From assembly GCF_055900595.2 (NCBI RefSeq), contig NZ_CM148325.1: a DNA stretch of 64,000 bases. One strand, written 5' to 3'. Positions 3,209-63,560 of this stretch are shown here, one piece after another. Both the position numbers and the translations under genes were made by a program. Position 1 is the stretch's first letter; every line of letters starts with the position of its first letter. The notes under the pieces were generated by a model that saw nothing but the letters and a program-made list of their open reading frames with translations, was not told the DNA's origin and did not search any database.

Positions 3209-4864
3209 TTAACTCATCACGCGGTCGTCAACATACTGACGTTTATCCGGCGCTGGCGGGAAATACTGATACAGCCATGTTTCACTGATAGCGTCGCCCT
3301 GACAACGCAGATACATCCGCATATCGACCGGATCAGTGGAGTCCGAAGTCGGATACCAGTCAAACTGAATACGATAACCATCAATGGGTTCAATATAGAG
3401 AATTTCGATTTGCTTCGCTTCCCCACTGGAAAGCGTAATCACCGGCTCAATGCCTTTTGGTGCGGCAGCTTTCAGATCACCACCAACGAAATCGACGGCA
3501 AAACGACGCGCCCATTTTTCGGGATAGTGTTCACCAGGCGCCCAACCTTCCGGGAAACCGCCCATGCCGGTACGCGTTGCCATAACGCGCGCTAATGGGC
3601 AATGAACAGGCGGTTGCGCACTCCAGTACAGACGATACTGGAATGCAAACTCATCACCCGCTTTTACAGCTTTTTCTGGCTGCCAGAAGCAGACAATGTT
3701 ATCCAGCGTTTCGCCCGTTGTTGGGATTTCCATCAGGCCGATGGTGCCCTTACCCCACTTGTTACGCGGTTCCACCCACAGACTTGGGCGTTTGTTATAC
3801 CAGCCCATAATGTCCTGATAATGAGAGAAATCGCGATCCAGTTGCAATAAACCAAACCCTTTCGGGTTGTTGTCGGTGTAAGCATTGAACTGCAATTTTT
3901 GCGGATTATTCAGCGGACGGCAAATCCACTCGCCGTTGCCCCGCCACATGGACAGACGATCAGAGTCATGGATTTGCGGATGAATGGTGTCGCACATCCG
4001 ACGTTCATTAGTGCCGCAGCTGAACATGCTGGTCATCGGCGCAATGCCCAGCTGTTTAATGTCTTTGCGCGCATACAGGTGATTTTCCACATCCATAATC
4101 ACCTGACTTTTCTCACAATGGATAGTGAACTTATAGGCACCAGTAATGCTGGCGCTATCGAGCAACGCATAAACGGTAAAGGTGGTTGCCCCTGGTTTTA
4201 CCGTATCAAACCAGAAGGCGGTAAAGTCGGGGAACTCTTCTTTGCTGTCGGTGTAAGTGTCGATCGCCAGGCCGCGGGCCGACAAACCGTATTGATATGT
4301 GTCATCAACGGCGCGGAAATAACTCGCGCCGAGGAATGATACGACATCACGGCGCGCCAGTTCGGGGGCTTTAAACACGCGAAAACCGGCAAAACCGAGA
4401 TCGCTTTGCCCTTCTAATTGTTTGGTATCCACACCCGCATCGTTGTATTTGAACAACTCCGGGCGAAAGTGAATTTCACGCGCCAGATGTGTTGCTGGAT
4501 CTACAGAAAACATACGAACGCGGCGACGGAATCCCATTCCCATATGGAAGAACTGAGCGTCCAGTTGACGGTTCTCAACGTTATGCCAGAGCGATTTTTC
4601 GGCGTCGTATTGAATACTGTTATAAGCCTGCGGCGTCATTGTCGCCAGAGTGTCAGGTAACGGACGCGGCGCACCACGCCACGCGGTTTGCGCTAAGTCG
4701 TGCGCCATTGACTGTAGAATGGAGAAGTCAAAACGCTGGGTTTGCCCGTCGGCAATATCAGAATCTGCCGCGAATGCCGCCTGAGAAAAAAGAGAAGCAA
4801 TGCCGCTGGTACCGCACACGGCGGCCATAGCCATTGAACCTTTAATAAATCGTCTACGATCCAT
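3209..4864 (-). CDS. opgD: Glucans biosynthesis protein D (OpgD/MdoD), Tat-exported periplasmic protein
   Basis: 551 aa ORF with twin-arginine signal [32 protein letters not shown] and MdoG/MdoD family body. Confidence 0.92.
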
Positions 4865-5088
4865 ACCTGAAAGTGAGTCCTTCTGGTGTTGTGAATAGTC
4901 CCGCGCTGGTCGTTTTCAGCGGCAAGAAAGTGCTTATTTATGACCGCTCACTCTAGACAATATTTATTAATAATCCAATTGTTGAACTCAGAGAATATGC
5001 ATTAATCGGCAATTTTTTTATGTCGATGGGATGAGCCTGATTCGTTTGTAAAATCAGGCAAATTTTTGCAAAGGCAGATAGTCAAAAT

Positions 5089-6432
5089 TTAAAGCAAACC
5101 ACAGCGGCGTTTACTGCGTTCTTCCGCTTCCTGATAAAGCTGGAACTCATCAAAAACTGGGCATCCCAACGCATGTTCGAAAGCTTCGCGGCTGGCATTA
5201 CCGTGACTGCGTGCCTGCGTTTCATTACCCAGATTTGACTGGAAGATCCCCGCCGCGCTAACAGGCAAAAAATCTTCATAAGTAATGGGTTGTGCCACTA
5301 CCCAACCACGTTCAATTAAGGGTTGTGGATCGTCTCCGGGATGAATCGCCTGACGATGCGCCTCACCTGAAGGCGTCAAACGATATCGGAACCATGCCAA
5401 CCCTTGCTGACGCATTAAAAACTCACTGTCAGGAAAAGTGCGGAAGGTTTCCTGTAAATGCATTTGATGAGTGAGATTATCCTGCCCGGTTCCAGCGTTC
5501 CGCAGAAGATCATCATACATTTGTCGTCCTTTCGGCGTTAATGCCACGCCACGCTGCTCTATTTCACCAAAGCGCGCGGTATGCGTGCCCTGTTTCTGCC
5601 CCGCAAACAACACCTTCTCTTCCAGTGCTTTAAAGCTGGTCTGGCGTAGTAAAATCGGTACCTCGCGGCGCGGCGGCCCTTCGATCAGAATTTTGGGTTC
5701 AATTCCGCATTCAGGCATCATCGACTGCACACGGTCAATATCCAGCGTACGTGGCGTCAGGTGGTTGATATGGCACCCAGGAAAACAGACCACATCAGCA
5801 ATCAGCCGATGTTCGTTGTGCAACGCACGATAGGTTTCTTCATCAACCGTTGCTGACTGGTGCCAGCGAAACGTTTCCAGGGCTTCCTGCACAAACTCCT
5901 GTGCCTGTGTTTCGTTAAAACCGCCCCGCTGCTCATACTCCTCTAACAGTTGTCGACAACGTGGGGTGAAGATATCGCGCTGACGCAGAATCTCCGCCGC
6001 TTTCTGGCGCAAAAATTCGTTCTCGATAAGCTCAAGACGGAGTAATGAGGTAAAAACGCGGAAGGGATTACGCGCCAGAGAAGCATCATCAATGGGCCGA
6101 AATGCTGTGGAATGTACCGGCACGCCCGCCTGCGAGAGATCGTAATAGCTCACCGGGTACATCCCCATAATGGCAAACATCCGCCGAAGAGTAGCAAGCT
6201 CTTGTGCAGTCCCAACGCGAATTGCCCCATGACGTTCAACATTCAGTCGCGCCAGCTCGTCTGCATTTACCATTTTTTCGTGCAGTTGAGGATTGTTTTC
6301 CAGCACAGCCAGATTCACATCAGCTACCAGTTCCAGCAGCGTGCCGTACTGCGGAACTTCTTGCTGGTACATGGCTGACATTGCCTGCGAAAACTGTTCC
6401 CGAATCTCATCCGCCGTGATGCTGTTCGCCAT
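5089..6432 (-). CDS. ydcJ: DUF1338 family putative metalloenzyme YdcJ
   Basis: 447 aa ORF, conserved position between opgD and ydcI. Confidence 0.85.
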   Translation of the reverse strand: MANSITADEIREQFSQAMSAMYQQEVPQYGTLLELVADVNLAVLENNPQLHEKMVNADELARLNVERHGAIRVGTAQELATLRRMFAIMGMYPVSYYDLSQAGVPVHSTAFRPIDDASLARNPFRVFTSLLRLELIENEFLRQKAAEILRQRDIFTPRCRQLLEEYEQRGGFNETQAQEFVQEALETFRWHQSATVDEETYRALHNEHRLIADVVCFPGCHINHLTPRTLDIDRVQSMMPECGIEPKILIEGPPRREVPILLRQTSFKALEEKVLFAGQKQGTHTARFGEIEQRGVALTPKGRQMYDDLLRNAGTGQDNLTHQMHLQETFRTFPDSEFLMRQQGLAWFRYRLTPSGEAHRQAIHPGDDPQPLIERGWVVAQPITYEDFLPVSAAGIFQSNLGNETQARSHGNASREAFEHALGCPVFDEFQLYQEAEERSKRRCGLL

Positions 6433-27578: not shown

Positions 27579-27641
27579 ATGCACTCCATGCCATTAAAAA
27601 AGAAACAAAAGGGAAATGCATCTTTCCCTTTTGTATATTCG

Positions 27642-28502
27642 TTATTCTCGCGAAATACCGTCCAACGTAGACAACACGTCCGCAGAAAGATGCAATTTTT
27701 CTGAGGCCATATTCTCCCGTAAATGAGCAACAGAAGACGTTCCTGGGATCAGCAAAATATTCGGTGAACGTTGTAACAGCCACGCCAGCGCCACCTGCAT
27801 TGGTGTTGCACCCAGGCTCGCAGCAACATCGGAAAGCGTGGAGGATTGCAGCGGCGTAAAGCCCCCGAGCGGAAAGAACGGCACGTAGGCAATGCCGTCA
27901 CGAGCCAAAGCATCAATCATTGCGTCATCAGCACGATGAGCAATGTTGTATTCGTTCTGCACACAGACAATTTCGGTAATCTTACGCGCCTCTGCAACCT
28001 GCGTCGGTGTGACGTTGCTCAGGCCAATATGTTTTACCAGGCCTTGTTGTCGCATCTCTGCCAGCACGGTCAGGCTGGCTTCAATCGATCCTTCCGCTGG
28101 GCCATGACCATCCCCCATCATAACGCGCAGGTTAACCACATCCAGTACGTCCAGTCCGAGATTACGTAGATTATCGTGTACCGCTTTTTGCAACTCTGCC
28201 GGAGAAAATGCGGGCAACCAGGAGGCGTCCTCTCCACGCCGCGCCCCAATTTTAGTAACAATGGTCAGGTCGTCAGAGTAAGGATAAAGCGCTTCGCGGA
28301 TAATCTGATTGGTGACGTGCGGACCATAAAAGTCACTGGTATCAATGTGATTGACGCCCAATGCTAGCGCCTCGCGCAGAACGGTTATAGCGACGTGGCG
28401 ATCTCTGGGCGGGCCGAAAACCCCAGGACCTGCCAGTTGCATCGCGCCATAACCAAGACGGTTAACGGATTTTGTACCGAGAGTAAATGTGTTGCTGCTC
28501 AT
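27642..28502 (-). CDS. pdxI: Aldo-keto reductase, pyridoxine 4-dehydrogenase PdxI (YdbC)
   Basis: 286 aa AKR family protein. Confidence 0.9.
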   Translation of the reverse strand: MSSNTFTLGTKSVNRLGYGAMQLAGPGVFGPPRDRHVAITVLREALALGVNHIDTSDFYGPHVTNQIIREALYPYSDDLTIVTKIGARRGEDASWLPAFSPAELQKAVHDNLRNLGLDVLDVVNLRVMMGDGHGPAEGSIEASLTVLAEMRQQGLVKHIGLSNVTPTQVAEARKITEIVCVQNEYNIAHRADDAMIDALARDGIAYVPFFPLGGFTPLQSSTLSDVAASLGATPMQVALAWLLQRSPNILLIPGTSSVAHLRENMASEKLHLSADVLSTLDGISRE

Positions 28503-58464: not shown

Positions 58465-59217
58465 ATGATCCCGGAAAAGCGAATTATACGGCGCATTCAG
58501 TCTGGCGGTTGTGCTATCCATTGCCAGGATTGCAGCATCAGCCAGCTTTGCATCCCGTTCACACTCAACGAACATGAGCTTGATCAGCTTGATAATATCA
58601 TTGAGCGAAAGAAGCCTATTCAGAAAGGCCAGACGCTGTTTAAGGCTGGTGATGAACTTAAATCGCTTTATGCCATCCGCTCCGGTACGATTAAAAGTTA
58701 TACCATCACTGAGCAAGGCGACGAGCAAATCACTGGTTTCCATTTAGCAGGCGACCTGGTGGGATTTGATGCCATCGGCAGTGGTCATCACCCAAGCTTC
58801 GCGCAGGCGCTGGAAACCTCGATGGTATGTGAAATCCCGTTCGAAACGCTGGACGATTTGTCCGGTAAAATGCCGAATCTGCGTCAGCAGATGATGCGTC
58901 TGATGAGCGGTGAAATCAAAGGCGATCAGGACATGATCCTGCTGTTGTCGAAGAAAAATGCCGAGGAGCGTCTGGCTGCATTCATCTACAACCTGTCCCG
59001 TCGTTTTGCCCAACGCGGCTTCTCCCCTCGTGAATTCCGCCTGACGATGACTCGTGGCGATATCGGTAACTATCTGGGCCTGACGGTAGAAACCATCAGC
59101 CGTCTGCTGGGTCGCTTCCAGAAAAGCGGTATGCTGGCAGTCAAAGGTAAATACATCACCATCGAAAATAACGATGCGCTGGCCCAGCTTGCTGGTCATA
59201 CGCGTAACGTTGCCTGA
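58465..59217 (+). CDS. fnr: Fumarate and nitrate reduction regulator FNR (CRP/FNR family, Fe-S oxygen sensor)
   Basis: ORF 58408..59217; canonical start [29 protein letters not shown] with N-terminal Cys cluster; C-terminal HTH. Confidence 0.96.
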
Positions 59218-59368
59218 TTTTTCCGCATAACTCACTATCCTTCTGTCATATCATTAAATTTTTCTGATTTATTGATCTGACAGAAGGTTCATCACTGTTT
59301 CATTCACCAGATATGGGTTAATCTTTTAATTACAAACTGCGTTGACAGTTGTTGTAAGGAGACCCTGT

Positions 59369-60338: not shown

Positions 60339-60366
60339 AAGGCCCGAGTTATCGGGCCTATTTTTT
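60339..60366 (+). terminator. Intrinsic terminator of uspE (between convergent uspE and ynaJ)
   Basis: GGCCCGA-gtta-TCGGGCC followed by TATTTTTT. Confidence 0.7.
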
Positions 60367-60368
60367 AC

Positions 60369-60626
60369 TTACTGCTCTTCGCCGCCAAGGAAATAAATGC
60401 CCAACGGGATTGCCAGCAACACAGTAAAGACCAGGCTATAAACAAAAATCATTGATGACTGAATCACATACATTGATGTCGTCCACTCAGACAGCGGAAT
60501 ATTGTACTGTTCTATCACGCCGCCGATGGTCGCGCGAGTCACAACCGACGCCGCAATAATGAAAACCGCCAACAAACCAAAGAGAAATTTCTTCCCTTTC
60601 GCTGACTTCAGTTTCGCCATAATCAT
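60369..60626 (-). CDS. ynaJ: Small inner-membrane protein YnaJ (DUF2534)
   Basis: 85 aa, two predicted TM helices. Confidence 0.88.
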   Translation of the reverse strand: MIMAKLKSAKGKKFLFGLLAVFIIAASVVTRATIGGVIEQYNIPLSEWTTSMYVIQSSMIFVYSLVFTVLLAIPLGIYFLGGEEQ

Positions 60627-60869
60627 GATGTAATCCTTGTGCAGACAAATTTTTTGTTACCTCTATGCAACAATACCATGACATTTCACTCTTGTCTGCT
60701 CTGAAAACCTCACCTCTTAGCCGGATTTACAATCAATGCATTGATTTGTTAGCTAATGTTGCTACTTACTTCCCTGACTATTGATGATCTGAATGAATTG
60801 TCGCGGTAAAATATCCCCGCCAGGGGTTTCCGGCATGACGACAATTATCTGGAGGAGCCTGATAAAACA

Positions 60870-61901
60870 ATGATCGCTGAACTGTTTACAAATAATGCGC
60901 TTAATCTGGTCATTATTTTCGGTAGCTGCGCAGCATTGATTCTGATGAGCTTTTGGTTTCGCCGTGGAAATCGTAAAAGAAAAGGGTTTTTATTCCATGC
61001 GGTGCAATTTTTCATCTACACCATAATTATCAGTGCTGTTGGTAGCATCATTAATTATGTTATAGAAAACTATAAACTCAAATTTATCACCCCAGGCGTT
61101 ATCGATTTTATCTGTACGTCCCTGATTGCGGTTATTCTGACGATTAAACTATTTCTGCTGATAAATCAGTTTGAAAAACAGCAGATTAAAAAAGGTCGCG
61201 ATATCACCAGTGCGCGGATTATGTCGCGTATCATCAAAATCACCATTATTGTGGTACTTGTTTTGCTTTATGGCGAACATTTCGGCATGAGCCTTTCTGG
61301 CTTGTTGACCTTTGGTGGTATTGGTGGTCTGGCTGTCGGTATGGCCGGTAAAGATATTTTGAGTAATTTCTTTTCCGGGATTATGCTCTATTTCGACCGT
61401 CCTTTTAGTATTGGCGACTGGATCCGTTCACCGGACAGAAATATCGAAGGTACAGTAGCGGAAATTGGCTGGCGAATTACCAAAATTACGACCTTTGATA
61501 ATCGTCCATTGTACGTACCGAACTCGCTGTTTTCGTCAATCAGCGTAGAAAACCCTGGACGAATGACCAACCGGCGCATTACCACGACCATTGGTTTACG
61601 TTATGAGGATGCGGCAAAAGTGGGCGTTATTGTCGAAGCCGTACGTGAGATGCTGAAAAATCACCCGGCCATCGACCAGCGACAAACCTTACTGGTTTAT
61701 TTCAACCAGTTTGCTGACTCCTCATTGAATATTATGGTTTATTGCTTTACCAAAACCACGGTATGGGCTGAATGGCTTGCCGCCCAGCAGGATGTTTATT
61801 TGAAGATTATCGATATTGTACAGTCACACGGCGCGGATTTCGCGTTCCCAAGCCAGACGCTGTATATGGATAACATTACACCACCAGACCAGGGTCGTTA
61901 A
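60870..61901 (+). CDS. ynaI: MscS-family mechanosensitive channel YnaI
   Basis: 343 aa; TM helices followed by MscS beta-domain. Confidence 0.92.
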
Positions 61902-61912
61902 TTCAGACATCA

Positions 61913-61940
61913 CTGGCGTTACCCACAAGGGTAACGCCAG
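61913..61940. terminator. Perfect 12-bp hairpin between convergent ynaI and mppA
   Basis: CTGGCGTTACCC-acaa-GGGTAACGCCAG; no clear U-tract on either strand, so function (terminator vs processing/stability element) uncertain. Confidence 0.4.
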
Positions 61941-61946
61941 TTCACA

Positions 61947-63560
61947 TCAATGTTTCACAATATACATAGTCCGGCTATACGCCACATCTTCCGGGTTATT
62001 AATGGGATAACCTTTCAGCCACGGTTTGATTAATCGTCCATTGGTATATTGATAAATTGGTGCAATCGGTGCTTGCTCCATGAGGATTTTTTCTGCCGCG
62101 TTGTAATCGGCATTACGCGCTTTAACGGTATTTTCCGTCGATGCCTGGGCCAAAACTTTGTCGTAGGCCGGGTTGTTAAAGCGTGAAATGTTGCCTGAAT
62201 GCGTTGACGTTAATAATGTCAGGAAGGTGGAGGGTTCATTATAATCCCCCACCCACGAGGCGCGGATAACATCAAAATTACCTGTATTACGACTATCGAT
62301 ATAGGTTTTCCATTCCTGATTTTGCAGTTTGACATCTACACCAAGGTTCTTTTTCCACATCGATGCCACAGCAATCGCAATTTTTTGATGGTTTTCTGAA
62401 GTATTATACAAAAGCGTCAGCTTCAGCGGTTTTTGCGGACCATAACCGGCTGCGCTCAACAAAGTTTTTGCCTGCGCATTCAGTTCTTCCTGACTCATTT
62501 GTTCAAACGGCGAAGGCTCCGGCGTGAATCCGGCAGTAACATCTGGCGTAAAATGCCACGCTGGTTTTTCGCCCGTCCCCAACACTTTTTCGGTCATCAG
62601 GCGGCGATCTATCGTCATACTTAATGCCAGGCGAACGCGCTGATCTGCCGTCGGCCCTTTTTGCGTGTTAAACGCATAATAATAGGTCCCGAGCTGCGGC
62701 GGCGTATAAACCTGCCCCGGAATATCCTTCAACAGCTTCTGATACATATTTTTCGGGAAGGATTCGGTGATATCAATATCCCCCGCGAGATAACGCTTAG
62801 TGGCAGCGGATTCCTGATTAATTGGCAGGAAGGTCACTTTTTGCAGTACCGTTTTGGCGTTATCCCAATAATGGGTATTCGGCACCACGACCAGTTTTTC
62901 ATTGACTACGCGCTCTTTAAGAACATAAGCGCCATTGCCGATCAGATTTCCGGGTTTCGTCCACTCTTTACTGCTTTCTACGTTGGCTTTTTGCACCGGG
63001 AAGAAGGCAAAGTTAGCGGTTAAATTCACAAACCACGGCAATGGTTTATCAAGCTGGATTTTCAAAGTATGGGCATCAACTGCGGTGACGCCAAGCTGGT
63101 CAGGCGTGGCTTTACCATCAATAATCGCCTGTGCGTTGTTGATTCCCGCCAGCGCGGCAAACCATGCAAATGGCGAAAGTGTTTTCGGGTCCACCAGACG
63201 CTGCCAGCTGTAGACAAAATCTTGCGCCGTTACCGGTGTGCCATCCGCCCATTTTGCGTTATCGCGCAGGGTAAAAGTCCAGATACGGTTGTCATTACTT
63301 TTCCACTGAGTCGCAACGCCAGGGACAATCTCCCCTTTCTCGTTCTGATTCACCAGTCCTTCAAATAGATCGCGAATGACCTGAATCTCTGGCAGGCCCA
63401 CGGCTTTAGCGGGATCCAGCGACGCAGGCTCATCTTTAATGTGGCGCACCAGCTCCTGCTTCTCTGCCAGTACTGTGCCGCTCGGAACTTCTGCAGCATA
63501 CGAAAGAGAAATGCTGCTGACCAACAGCGCACAACACGTGACTGAAACAGAGTGCTTCAT
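61947..63560 (-). CDS. mppA: Periplasmic murein tripeptide-binding protein MppA
   Basis: 537 aa family-5 solute-binding protein with signal peptide. Confidence 0.93.
   Translation of the reverse strand: MKHSVSVTCCALLVSSISLSYAAEVPSGTVLAEKQELVRHIKDEPASLDPAKAVGLPEIQVIRDLFEGLVNQNEKGEIVPGVATQWKSNDNRIWTFTLRDNAKWADGTPVTAQDFVYSWQRLVDPKTLSPFAWFAALAGINNAQAIIDGKATPDQLGVTAVDAHTLKIQLDKPLPWFVNLTANFAFFPVQKANVESSKEWTKPGNLIGNGAYVLKERVVNEKLVVVPNTHYWDNAKTVLQKVTFLPINQESAATKRYLAGDIDITESFPKNMYQKLLKDIPGQVYTPPQLGTYYYAFNTQKGPTADQRVRLALSMTIDRRLMTEKVLGTGEKPAWHFTPDVTAGFTPEPSPFEQMSQEELNAQAKTLLSAAGYGPQKPLKLTLLYNTSENHQKIAIAVASMWKKNLGVDVKLQNQEWKTYIDSRNTGNFDVIRASWVGDYNEPSTFLTLLTSTHSGNISRFNNPAYDKVLAQASTENTVKARNADYNAAEKILMEQAPIAPIYQYTNGRLIKPWLKGYPINNPEDVAYSRTMYIVKH

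Follow-up and report, generated by a model that had tools for sequence, protein, structure and literature searches.

Between the convergent genes ynaI and mppA lies one long palindrome with no U-tract on either flank, and the reading that we favor, with a probability of about 0.6, is that its RNA stem-loop sets and protects the 3′ ends of both the ynaI and the mppA mRNAs, with Rho terminating transcription downstream. The palindrome sits in a window of 64,000 nt (assembly GCF_055900595.2, contig NZ_CM148325.1), and positions given below are those of this window unless K-12 is named. The experimental support comes from published data on Escherichia coli K-12, whose hairpin is a weaker allele than that of the window; the window strain, with its own allele, would be expected to behave as K-12 does. 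The ynaI/mppA hairpin is an ordinary, unnamed instance of a class of 3′ ends that has already been described. With it, ynaI and probably also mppA would have a defined 3′ UTR, and the lack of a visible classical terminator between the two genes would be accounted for. It would also be a clean case of two convergent Rho-terminated genes that share one palindrome, while its importance beyond annotation is small and current models are left unchallenged.

The stem-loop in the ynaI/mppA gap

The ynaI coding sequence (60870..61901, + strand, 343 aa) encodes a low-conductance mechanosensitive channel and ends in a TAA codon at 61899-61901, 10 nt ahead of the stem, and mppA (61947..63560, - strand, 537 aa), which encodes a murein tripeptide binding protein, ends in a TGA codon (TCA on the + strand) at 61947-61949, 5 nt from the stem. 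These identities, and the convergent orientation that a reading made from the sequence alone had proposed, agree with the ORF list and with the RefSeq annotation of matching E. coli genomes. The intergenic gap that results is 45 nt long (61902..61946) and forms the common 3′ UTR of both genes. Direct inspection of 61913-61940 returned CTGGCGTTACCC-ACAA-GGGTAACGCCAG, an inverted repeat with a 4-nt loop identical in every letter to that of the sequence-only reading, which had described a perfect stem of 12 bp. The pairing is indeed perfect but the stem is longer, since A61912 and T61941 pair as well and thus extend it to 13 bp: the left arm, ACTGGCGTTACCC, occupies 61912..61924, the right arm, GGGTAACGCCAGT, occupies 61929..61941, and the loop between them (61925..61928) is ACAA in the ynaI-sense RNA and UUGU in the mppA-sense RNA.

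Fold energy had been named as one check on the palindrome, and the RNA of the 45-nt gap folds as this one hairpin on either strand, at -24.7 kcal/mol for the + strand (z-score -8.5) and -25.8 kcal/mol for the - strand (z-score -7.9); none of 200 shuffled sequences folded as well. The description of the repeat as unusually long is also borne out, as perfect inverted repeats of at least 12 bp with loops of 3-8 nt occur at 2 loci in the window, whereas 60 first-order Markov simulations gave 0.05 on average, and a chance origin is therefore unlikely. The other perfect 12-bp hairpin of the window, ACAAAAGGGAAA-tgcatc-TTTCCCTTTTGT at 27595-27644, has an A-run ahead of it and looks like a terminator.

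A canonical intrinsic terminator combines a stable, GC-containing stem-loop with a U-rich tract of about 7-8 nt directly 3′ of the stem, and only the first of these is found here: the tails past the 13-bp stem are U-poor on both strands (TTCACATC on the + strand and GATGTCTG on the - strand), and the tail stretches UUCACAUC and GAUGUCUG contain no U-run on either side. The T-tail scores of the hairpin are 1.06 and 0.63, compared with 2.76 for the neighboring ynaJ/uspE terminator, and a consensus terminator scan that does detect the ynaJ/uspE terminator 1.5 kb away is silent at the ynaI/mppA site. The absence of a flanking U-run that the sequence-only reading had noted on both strands is thus confirmed. 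A canonical bidirectional intrinsic terminator is a stem-loop flanked by an A-run and a T-run. The ynaI/mppA hairpin resembles it in placing a GC-containing stem-loop just past the stop codons, and differs from it in having neither run.

The element does not belong to a known RNA or repeat family by the comparisons that were made. Rfam 15 covariance models gave no match over 61902-61946 at E-values up to 10, and the 28-mer has no second copy in the window even when 3 mismatches are allowed. A repeat or mobile-element origin was rejected because the element is single-copy, both in the window and per genome. REP elements are defined by a consensus present in many copies per genome, and here the median is 1 place per genome across 5416 genomes. 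REP elements in 3′ UTRs have been described as combined terminators and stabilizers (Harris et al. 2026, bioRxiv 10.64898/2026.03.23.713779); they share with the ynaI/mppA hairpin a palindrome without a U-tract in the 3′ UTR, and we count as further likenesses their partly Rho-dependent attenuation with stabilization of the upstream mRNA and the association, where REPs lie between convergent genes, with both of those genes. Unlike a REP, the ynaI/mppA hairpin is single-copy and stands outside the REP repeat family. A CsrA-type GGA motif was also considered and dropped on reading the allele sequences, in which GGA is found only on the mppA-sense RNA of alleles carrying a U.G wobble and is absent from the window allele.

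Transcript ends and Rho-dependent read-through in K-12

In K-12 MG1655 (coordinates of NC_000913.3), mppA occupies 1393227-1394840 on the + strand and ynaI 1394891-1395922 on the - strand, with the hairpin running from 1394880 down to 1394851 and the last G of the stem at 1394852. The TRS re-analysis of RNAtag-seq data (Supplementary Data 2; Barsheshet dataset; LB, exponential phase) places a - strand terminus at 1394842-1394852, with a dominant position at 1394845, a signal of 0.79 and adjusted p values of 7e-16, 3e-6 and 1.5e-4, so that the terminus is significant in all three replicates. Setting the dominant position against the stem, the K-12 ynaI mRNA ends in ...GCCAG-UUCCCAU, 7 nt past the stem. 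The same re-analysis places the ynaJ and uspE termini in their own intergenic gap, which confirms the coordinate system. Mapping of 3′ ends had been proposed as a check on the palindrome, and these published data thus provide a ynaI-sense end at the hairpin; by homology with K-12, the mature ynaI mRNA of the window would end at 61942..61950 (+), likewise about 7 nt past the stem. An mppA-sense 3′ end is absent from the matches listed in TRS and from the tables of Adams et al., TERMITe and SMRT-Cappable-seq. Neither the TERMITe nor the SMRT-Cappable-seq supplement lists ynaI, mppA or positions 13948xx, and the Term-seq 3′ ends curated by Adams et al. include none at 13947xx-13951xx, so the ynaI-sense end is missing there too and is present in one dataset only (TRS/RNAtag-seq). 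Text searches of the literature on a ynaI terminator and on Rho dependence of mppA returned nothing specific to this hairpin.

What happens to polymerases that pass the hairpin can be judged from the Rho regions reported for K-12 (Adams 2021, Supplementary file 2). One of these, at 1394762 on the - strand, is antisense to mppA and lies 89 nt past the hairpin (score 6.2, p 3.5e-6), with downstream/upstream reads of 8/41 in untreated cells and 73/60 with bicyclomycin. The other, at 1395123 on the + strand, is antisense to ynaI and lies 243 nt past the hairpin (score 7.3, p 1.6e-14), with reads of 14/94 untreated and 236/217 with bicyclomycin. When Rho is active, coverage in K-12 therefore drops about 5-7-fold across the region in both directions, and when Rho is inhibited there is no drop and the ratio is at least 1, from which it follows that the K-12 hairpin gives little or no intrinsic termination. 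These values are to be read with the facts that the Rho scores were computed on 800-nt windows, that bicyclomycin also raises antisense transcription, possibly starting downstream of the hairpin, and that the read counts of ynaI and mppA are low in the Adams et al. dataset. Canonical intrinsic terminators are Rho-independent, and the published K-12 scores of 6.2 and 7.3 are at odds with this; the missing U-tract and the Rho dependence together led us to reject an intrinsic terminator at this site, in agreement with the sequence-only reading, which had excluded a classical one for want of a U-run.

In the ynaI-sense direction, the first 80 nt past the hairpin (61942..62021, +) are C-rich and G-poor, with 21 C and 12 G, which places them at the 94th percentile of 80-nt windows and makes them a candidate Rho loading region; the K-12 peak at 1394762 (-) maps to approximately position 62025. 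On the mppA-sense RNA, a C-rich stretch (24 C, 12 G) is found at 61584..61661 (-), about 250 nt past the hairpin and antisense to ynaI, and the K-12 peak at 1395123 (+) maps to approximately position 61669. Both C-rich stretches thus adjoin positions that match Rho-region peaks, with an enrichment of C over G that is clear only on the ynaI-sense side, the mppA-sense RNA becoming C-rich only some 250 nt downstream.

Taken as a sequence of events, the model that we favor would begin with a palindrome encoding one stable RNA stem-loop in the 3′ UTR of both convergent mRNAs. Because there is no U-tract, RNA polymerase would not be released at the hairpin, and transcription from either side would pass it and run on antisense to the opposite gene, producing RNA that would go untranslated. 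Rho would load on this untranslated antisense RNA and terminate transcription within about 100-300 nt, after which 3′-to-5′ exonucleases (PNPase, RNase II) would shorten the tail as far as the hairpin. There the exonucleases would be blocked, so that the mature 3′ end would come to lie a few nucleotides beyond the stem and the mRNA would be stabilized. This is the arrangement reported by Dar and Sorek (2018), in which Rho-dependent transcripts end precisely just past stable stem-loops that lack U-rich tails, termination takes place further downstream, and PNPase and RNase II trim the RNA to the stem. The ynaI/mppA hairpin is like that class in being a stable stem-loop without a U-rich tail, in having a steady-state 3′ end just past the stem (7 nt past it, in K-12 and on the ynaI-sense strand), in showing bicyclomycin-sensitive read-through, that is, more read-through when Rho is inhibited (in K-12, at the resolution of the 800-nt windows), and in being followed, on the ynaI-sense side, by sequence richer in C than in G. 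It is unlike that class in that one palindrome would serve two convergent mRNAs and in that exonuclease trimming is here something that we infer. The sequence-only reading had first proposed an element acting in both directions, either Rho-dependent or protective against RNase, and the evidence favors this: Rho regions on both strands, a ynaI-sense 3′ end in K-12, and conservation across strains and into E. albertii. For the mppA-sense RNA, an end at the hairpin would be predicted.

Conservation and allelic variation

Conservation across strains had also been named as a check, and the 45-mer was found in 5416 of 5426 complete E. coli genomes, at a median of 1 copy per genome, and conservation of the element reaches into E. 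albertii. The perfect allele of the window (left arm CTGGCGTTACCC) is lineage-specific and occurs in only 18 of these genomes, with folding energies of -24.7 and -25.8 kcal/mol for the ynaI- and mppA-sense RNAs of the 45-nt gap (-24.7 and -28.7 over 51 nt). The commonest allele, in 3312 genomes, has the left arm CTGGCGTTATCC and carries a wobble that is U.G in the ynaI-sense RNA and a C/A mismatch in the mppA-sense RNA, with energies of about -22 kcal/mol in both senses. A further 2086 genomes, or about 38%, have a third difference and are mostly K-12-like (left arm CTGGCGTTATGC; -18.7 and -18.0 kcal/mol, ynaI- and mppA-sense). K-12 MG1655 itself is in this third group and has an extra G/G mismatch close to the loop; the weakened apex recurs in 4 of the 5 sequences of the group that were examined, which indicates loose constraint on the stem apex, and one allele of the group alters the bottom base pair of the stem instead. 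Every allele examined holds about -18 to -25 kcal/mol on both strands. The perfect stem is thus one U-to-C change in a rare lineage, and the constant part of the stem is its lower 9-10 bp. Most E. coli also have a 5-nt insertion, TCCCA, past the hairpin, which brings their gap to 50 nt. The natural alleles form a strand-asymmetric series (C-G; U.G, read as C/A from the opposite strand; and the K-12 allele, to which a G/G mismatch is added) that could be used to test how stable a stem must be for 3′-end protection.

Two observations on the surrounding sequence may be recorded here. The stretch 61700-62150 of the window is at least 99% identical in 17-18 of the 5426 complete genomes, and most of the others are about 94% identical over these 451 nt, a low identity by the standard of E. 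coli core genes and suggestive of a divergent or recombinant lineage at ynaI-mppA. In E. coli WWCOL-315 (locus 1845-2977), an IS3-family element is inserted about 40 nt past the hairpin, inside the 3′ end of mppA; the mppA coding sequence is cut short by it, and the hairpin stays joined to ynaI.

Between species, which were surveyed by a genome scan with YnaI, the direct ynaI/mppA junction was found only in E. coli, Escherichia sp. MOD1-EC7003 and E. albertii. The E. albertii hairpin, CTGGCGTTATC-AATAA-GATAACGCCAG, has a perfect 11-bp stem, and the tenth stem pair is C-G in the window, U.G in most E. coli and U-A in E. albertii. When E. coli is compared with E. albertii, 1 of 20 positions is different in the lower stem and 10 of 25 in the flanks of the gap (Fisher p = 0.012), and the adjoining gene ends differ at 35-44% of their third codon positions. 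Across 8 distinct Escherichia alleles, 9 of the 13 pairs are invariant and none shows a two-sided change relative to the commonest pair; covariation in this set is not significant, with 432 of 500 shuffles reaching the observed score, because those 9 pairs never vary. In other Escherichia species, Citrobacter and Salmonella, ynaI and mppA are separated by other genes, and unrelated sequences form strong hairpins there 0-14 nt from the ynaI stop codon and just past the mppA stop codon, some with classical A-runs and T-runs and some U-poor; several Citrobacter ynaI orthologues have the classical A-/T-run terminator type, AAAAGACGCGGAAATCCGCGTCTTTTTT. That the structure is kept while the sequence is replaced favors an RNA 3′-end role over a specific DNA-binding site. 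A different hairpin past ynaI, ACTGGATGGCGA...TCGCCATCCAGT with a T-rich tail, is present in E. whittamii, Escherichia sp. E1V33 and two divergent genomes labeled 'E. coli' (loci L005, L007, L008 and L084; approximately 3530-5600), and at one of these loci, L007, it is followed by a convergent 641-aa ORF in place of mppA. The break falls within the last two codons of ynaI, which marks the ynaI 3′ flank as a variable junction.

Competing explanations and neighboring elements

The strongest competitor, which we nonetheless consider unlikely, is that the hairpin itself terminates transcription, either as a weak non-canonical intrinsic terminator or as an overlapping bidirectional terminator at which the hairpin pauses polymerases arriving from both sides, head-on and trailing collisions release them, and Rho serves as a backup. 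Overlapping bidirectional terminators between convergent genes were reportedly described by Ju and colleagues in 2019. A single hairpin in a short convergent gap, with complementary 3′ ends that are likely to overlap, is the geometry of that class, and the neighboring ynaJ/uspE pair, the model 'bidirectional terminator' of single-molecule collision studies, is an example of it; at ynaI/mppA the shared hairpin is present and a 3′ end is mapped on one strand. Intrinsic termination, too, would be expected to leave an end at this distance, 7 nt beyond the stem, and the window allele, at -24.7 kcal/mol, is stronger than the K-12 allele from which the Rho data come. The overlapping bidirectional class is described as unlike intrinsic terminators in appearance (Wang et al. 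2022, bioRxiv 10.1101/2022.10.23.513370). Against this explanation, the U-tract is missing on both sides, and the class is described as Rho-independent, whereas ynaI/mppA has Rho regions on both strands in K-12, with Rho-dependent read-through of about 6-7-fold in both directions and ratios of at least 1 under bicyclomycin. Reads of ynaI and mppA are low, and under the trailing-polymerase model a low rate of initiation would make collisions rare; the ynaJ/uspE hairpin has a T-run (window 60340-60369) that the ynaI/mppA hairpin does not. A more elaborate proposal, which we regard as speculative and quite improbable, is that the U-less hairpin is a two-way device that pauses the polymerases of both genes, yields about 40 nt of perfectly complementary overlapping mRNA 3′ ends, and ties ynaI expression to that of mppA by collision, by duplex formation or by RNase III cleavage. 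The two genes are reported as co-expressed in an ICA component, and if such a device existed, the perfect, U.G and G/G-mismatch alleles would tune the coupling differently on each strand, because a pair that is U.G in the RNA of one strand becomes a C/A mismatch in that of the other.

The remaining explanations deny the RNA hairpin a role. A remnant of recombination or deletion, that is, a palindrome at the old junction that folds by accident and has no selected function, would fit the variable junction downstream of ynaI across Escherichia and Citrobacter, as well as the tolerance of apical mismatches in about 38% of E. coli genomes and the rarity of the perfect allele, but it would leave unexplained why the lower stem is far more conserved than the flanks and the synonymous sites, why a hairpin is found in every arrangement examined, and why an RNA end maps at the hairpin in K-12; we hold it to be improbable. 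A DNA-level site for a dimeric protein, whether a transcription factor or a nucleoid protein, with the RNA hairpin incidental, was another suggestion of the sequence-only reading, and it gained no support. Such a site could have the form seen here, perfect 13-bp arms in inverted orientation around a 4-bp spacer, and sequence-specific binding would also explain the strict conservation of the lower arms from E. coli to E. albertii. The palindrome nevertheless lies between two stop codons and far from the 5′ ends of both genes; two sigma-70-like hexamers overlap its 3′ edge, but in a consensus scan such matches occur in the region in the number expected by chance. The inner arm and the spacer change while pairing is retained (C-G, U.G, U-A; a 4-nt or a 5-nt loop), Citrobacter and Salmonella have unrelated hairpins at the same position, and an RNA 3′ end maps to the palindrome. 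None of the papers found links a binding site to this spot, and the nearby genomic SELEX peaks fall inside ynaI and mppA. We therefore consider a protein site very improbable, and a 3′-end stem-loop with Rho acting downstream remains the preferred reading.

Several neighboring elements of the window are of related interest. The ynaJ/uspE terminator at 60340-60369 reads AGGCCCGAGTTATCGGGCCT followed by ATTTTTT, its K-12 3′ termini are at 1397657 (+) and 1397626 (-), and Adams et al. still list a Rho region antisense to uspE at 1397980 (+), with a score of 6.6. The divergent ynaJ-ynaI gap (60627-60869) is without the IS5 copy (IS5F, insH4) that is present there in K-12 MG1655. Upstream of uspE, a 21-nt inverted repeat with 90% complementarity (CCTTCTGTCATATCATTAAAT / ATTTATTGATCTGACAGAAGG) occupies 59239-59287, starting 21 nt past the fnr stop codon (TGA, 59216-59218), and its tail, TTCATCAC, is U-poor. 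In K-12 the fnr-strand 3′ terminus given by TRS, 1398692-1398703, is 77 nt past the fnr stop codon, which corresponds to about 8 nt beyond the 59239-59287 hairpin, and this repeat looks like a second U-less 3′-end hairpin of the window.
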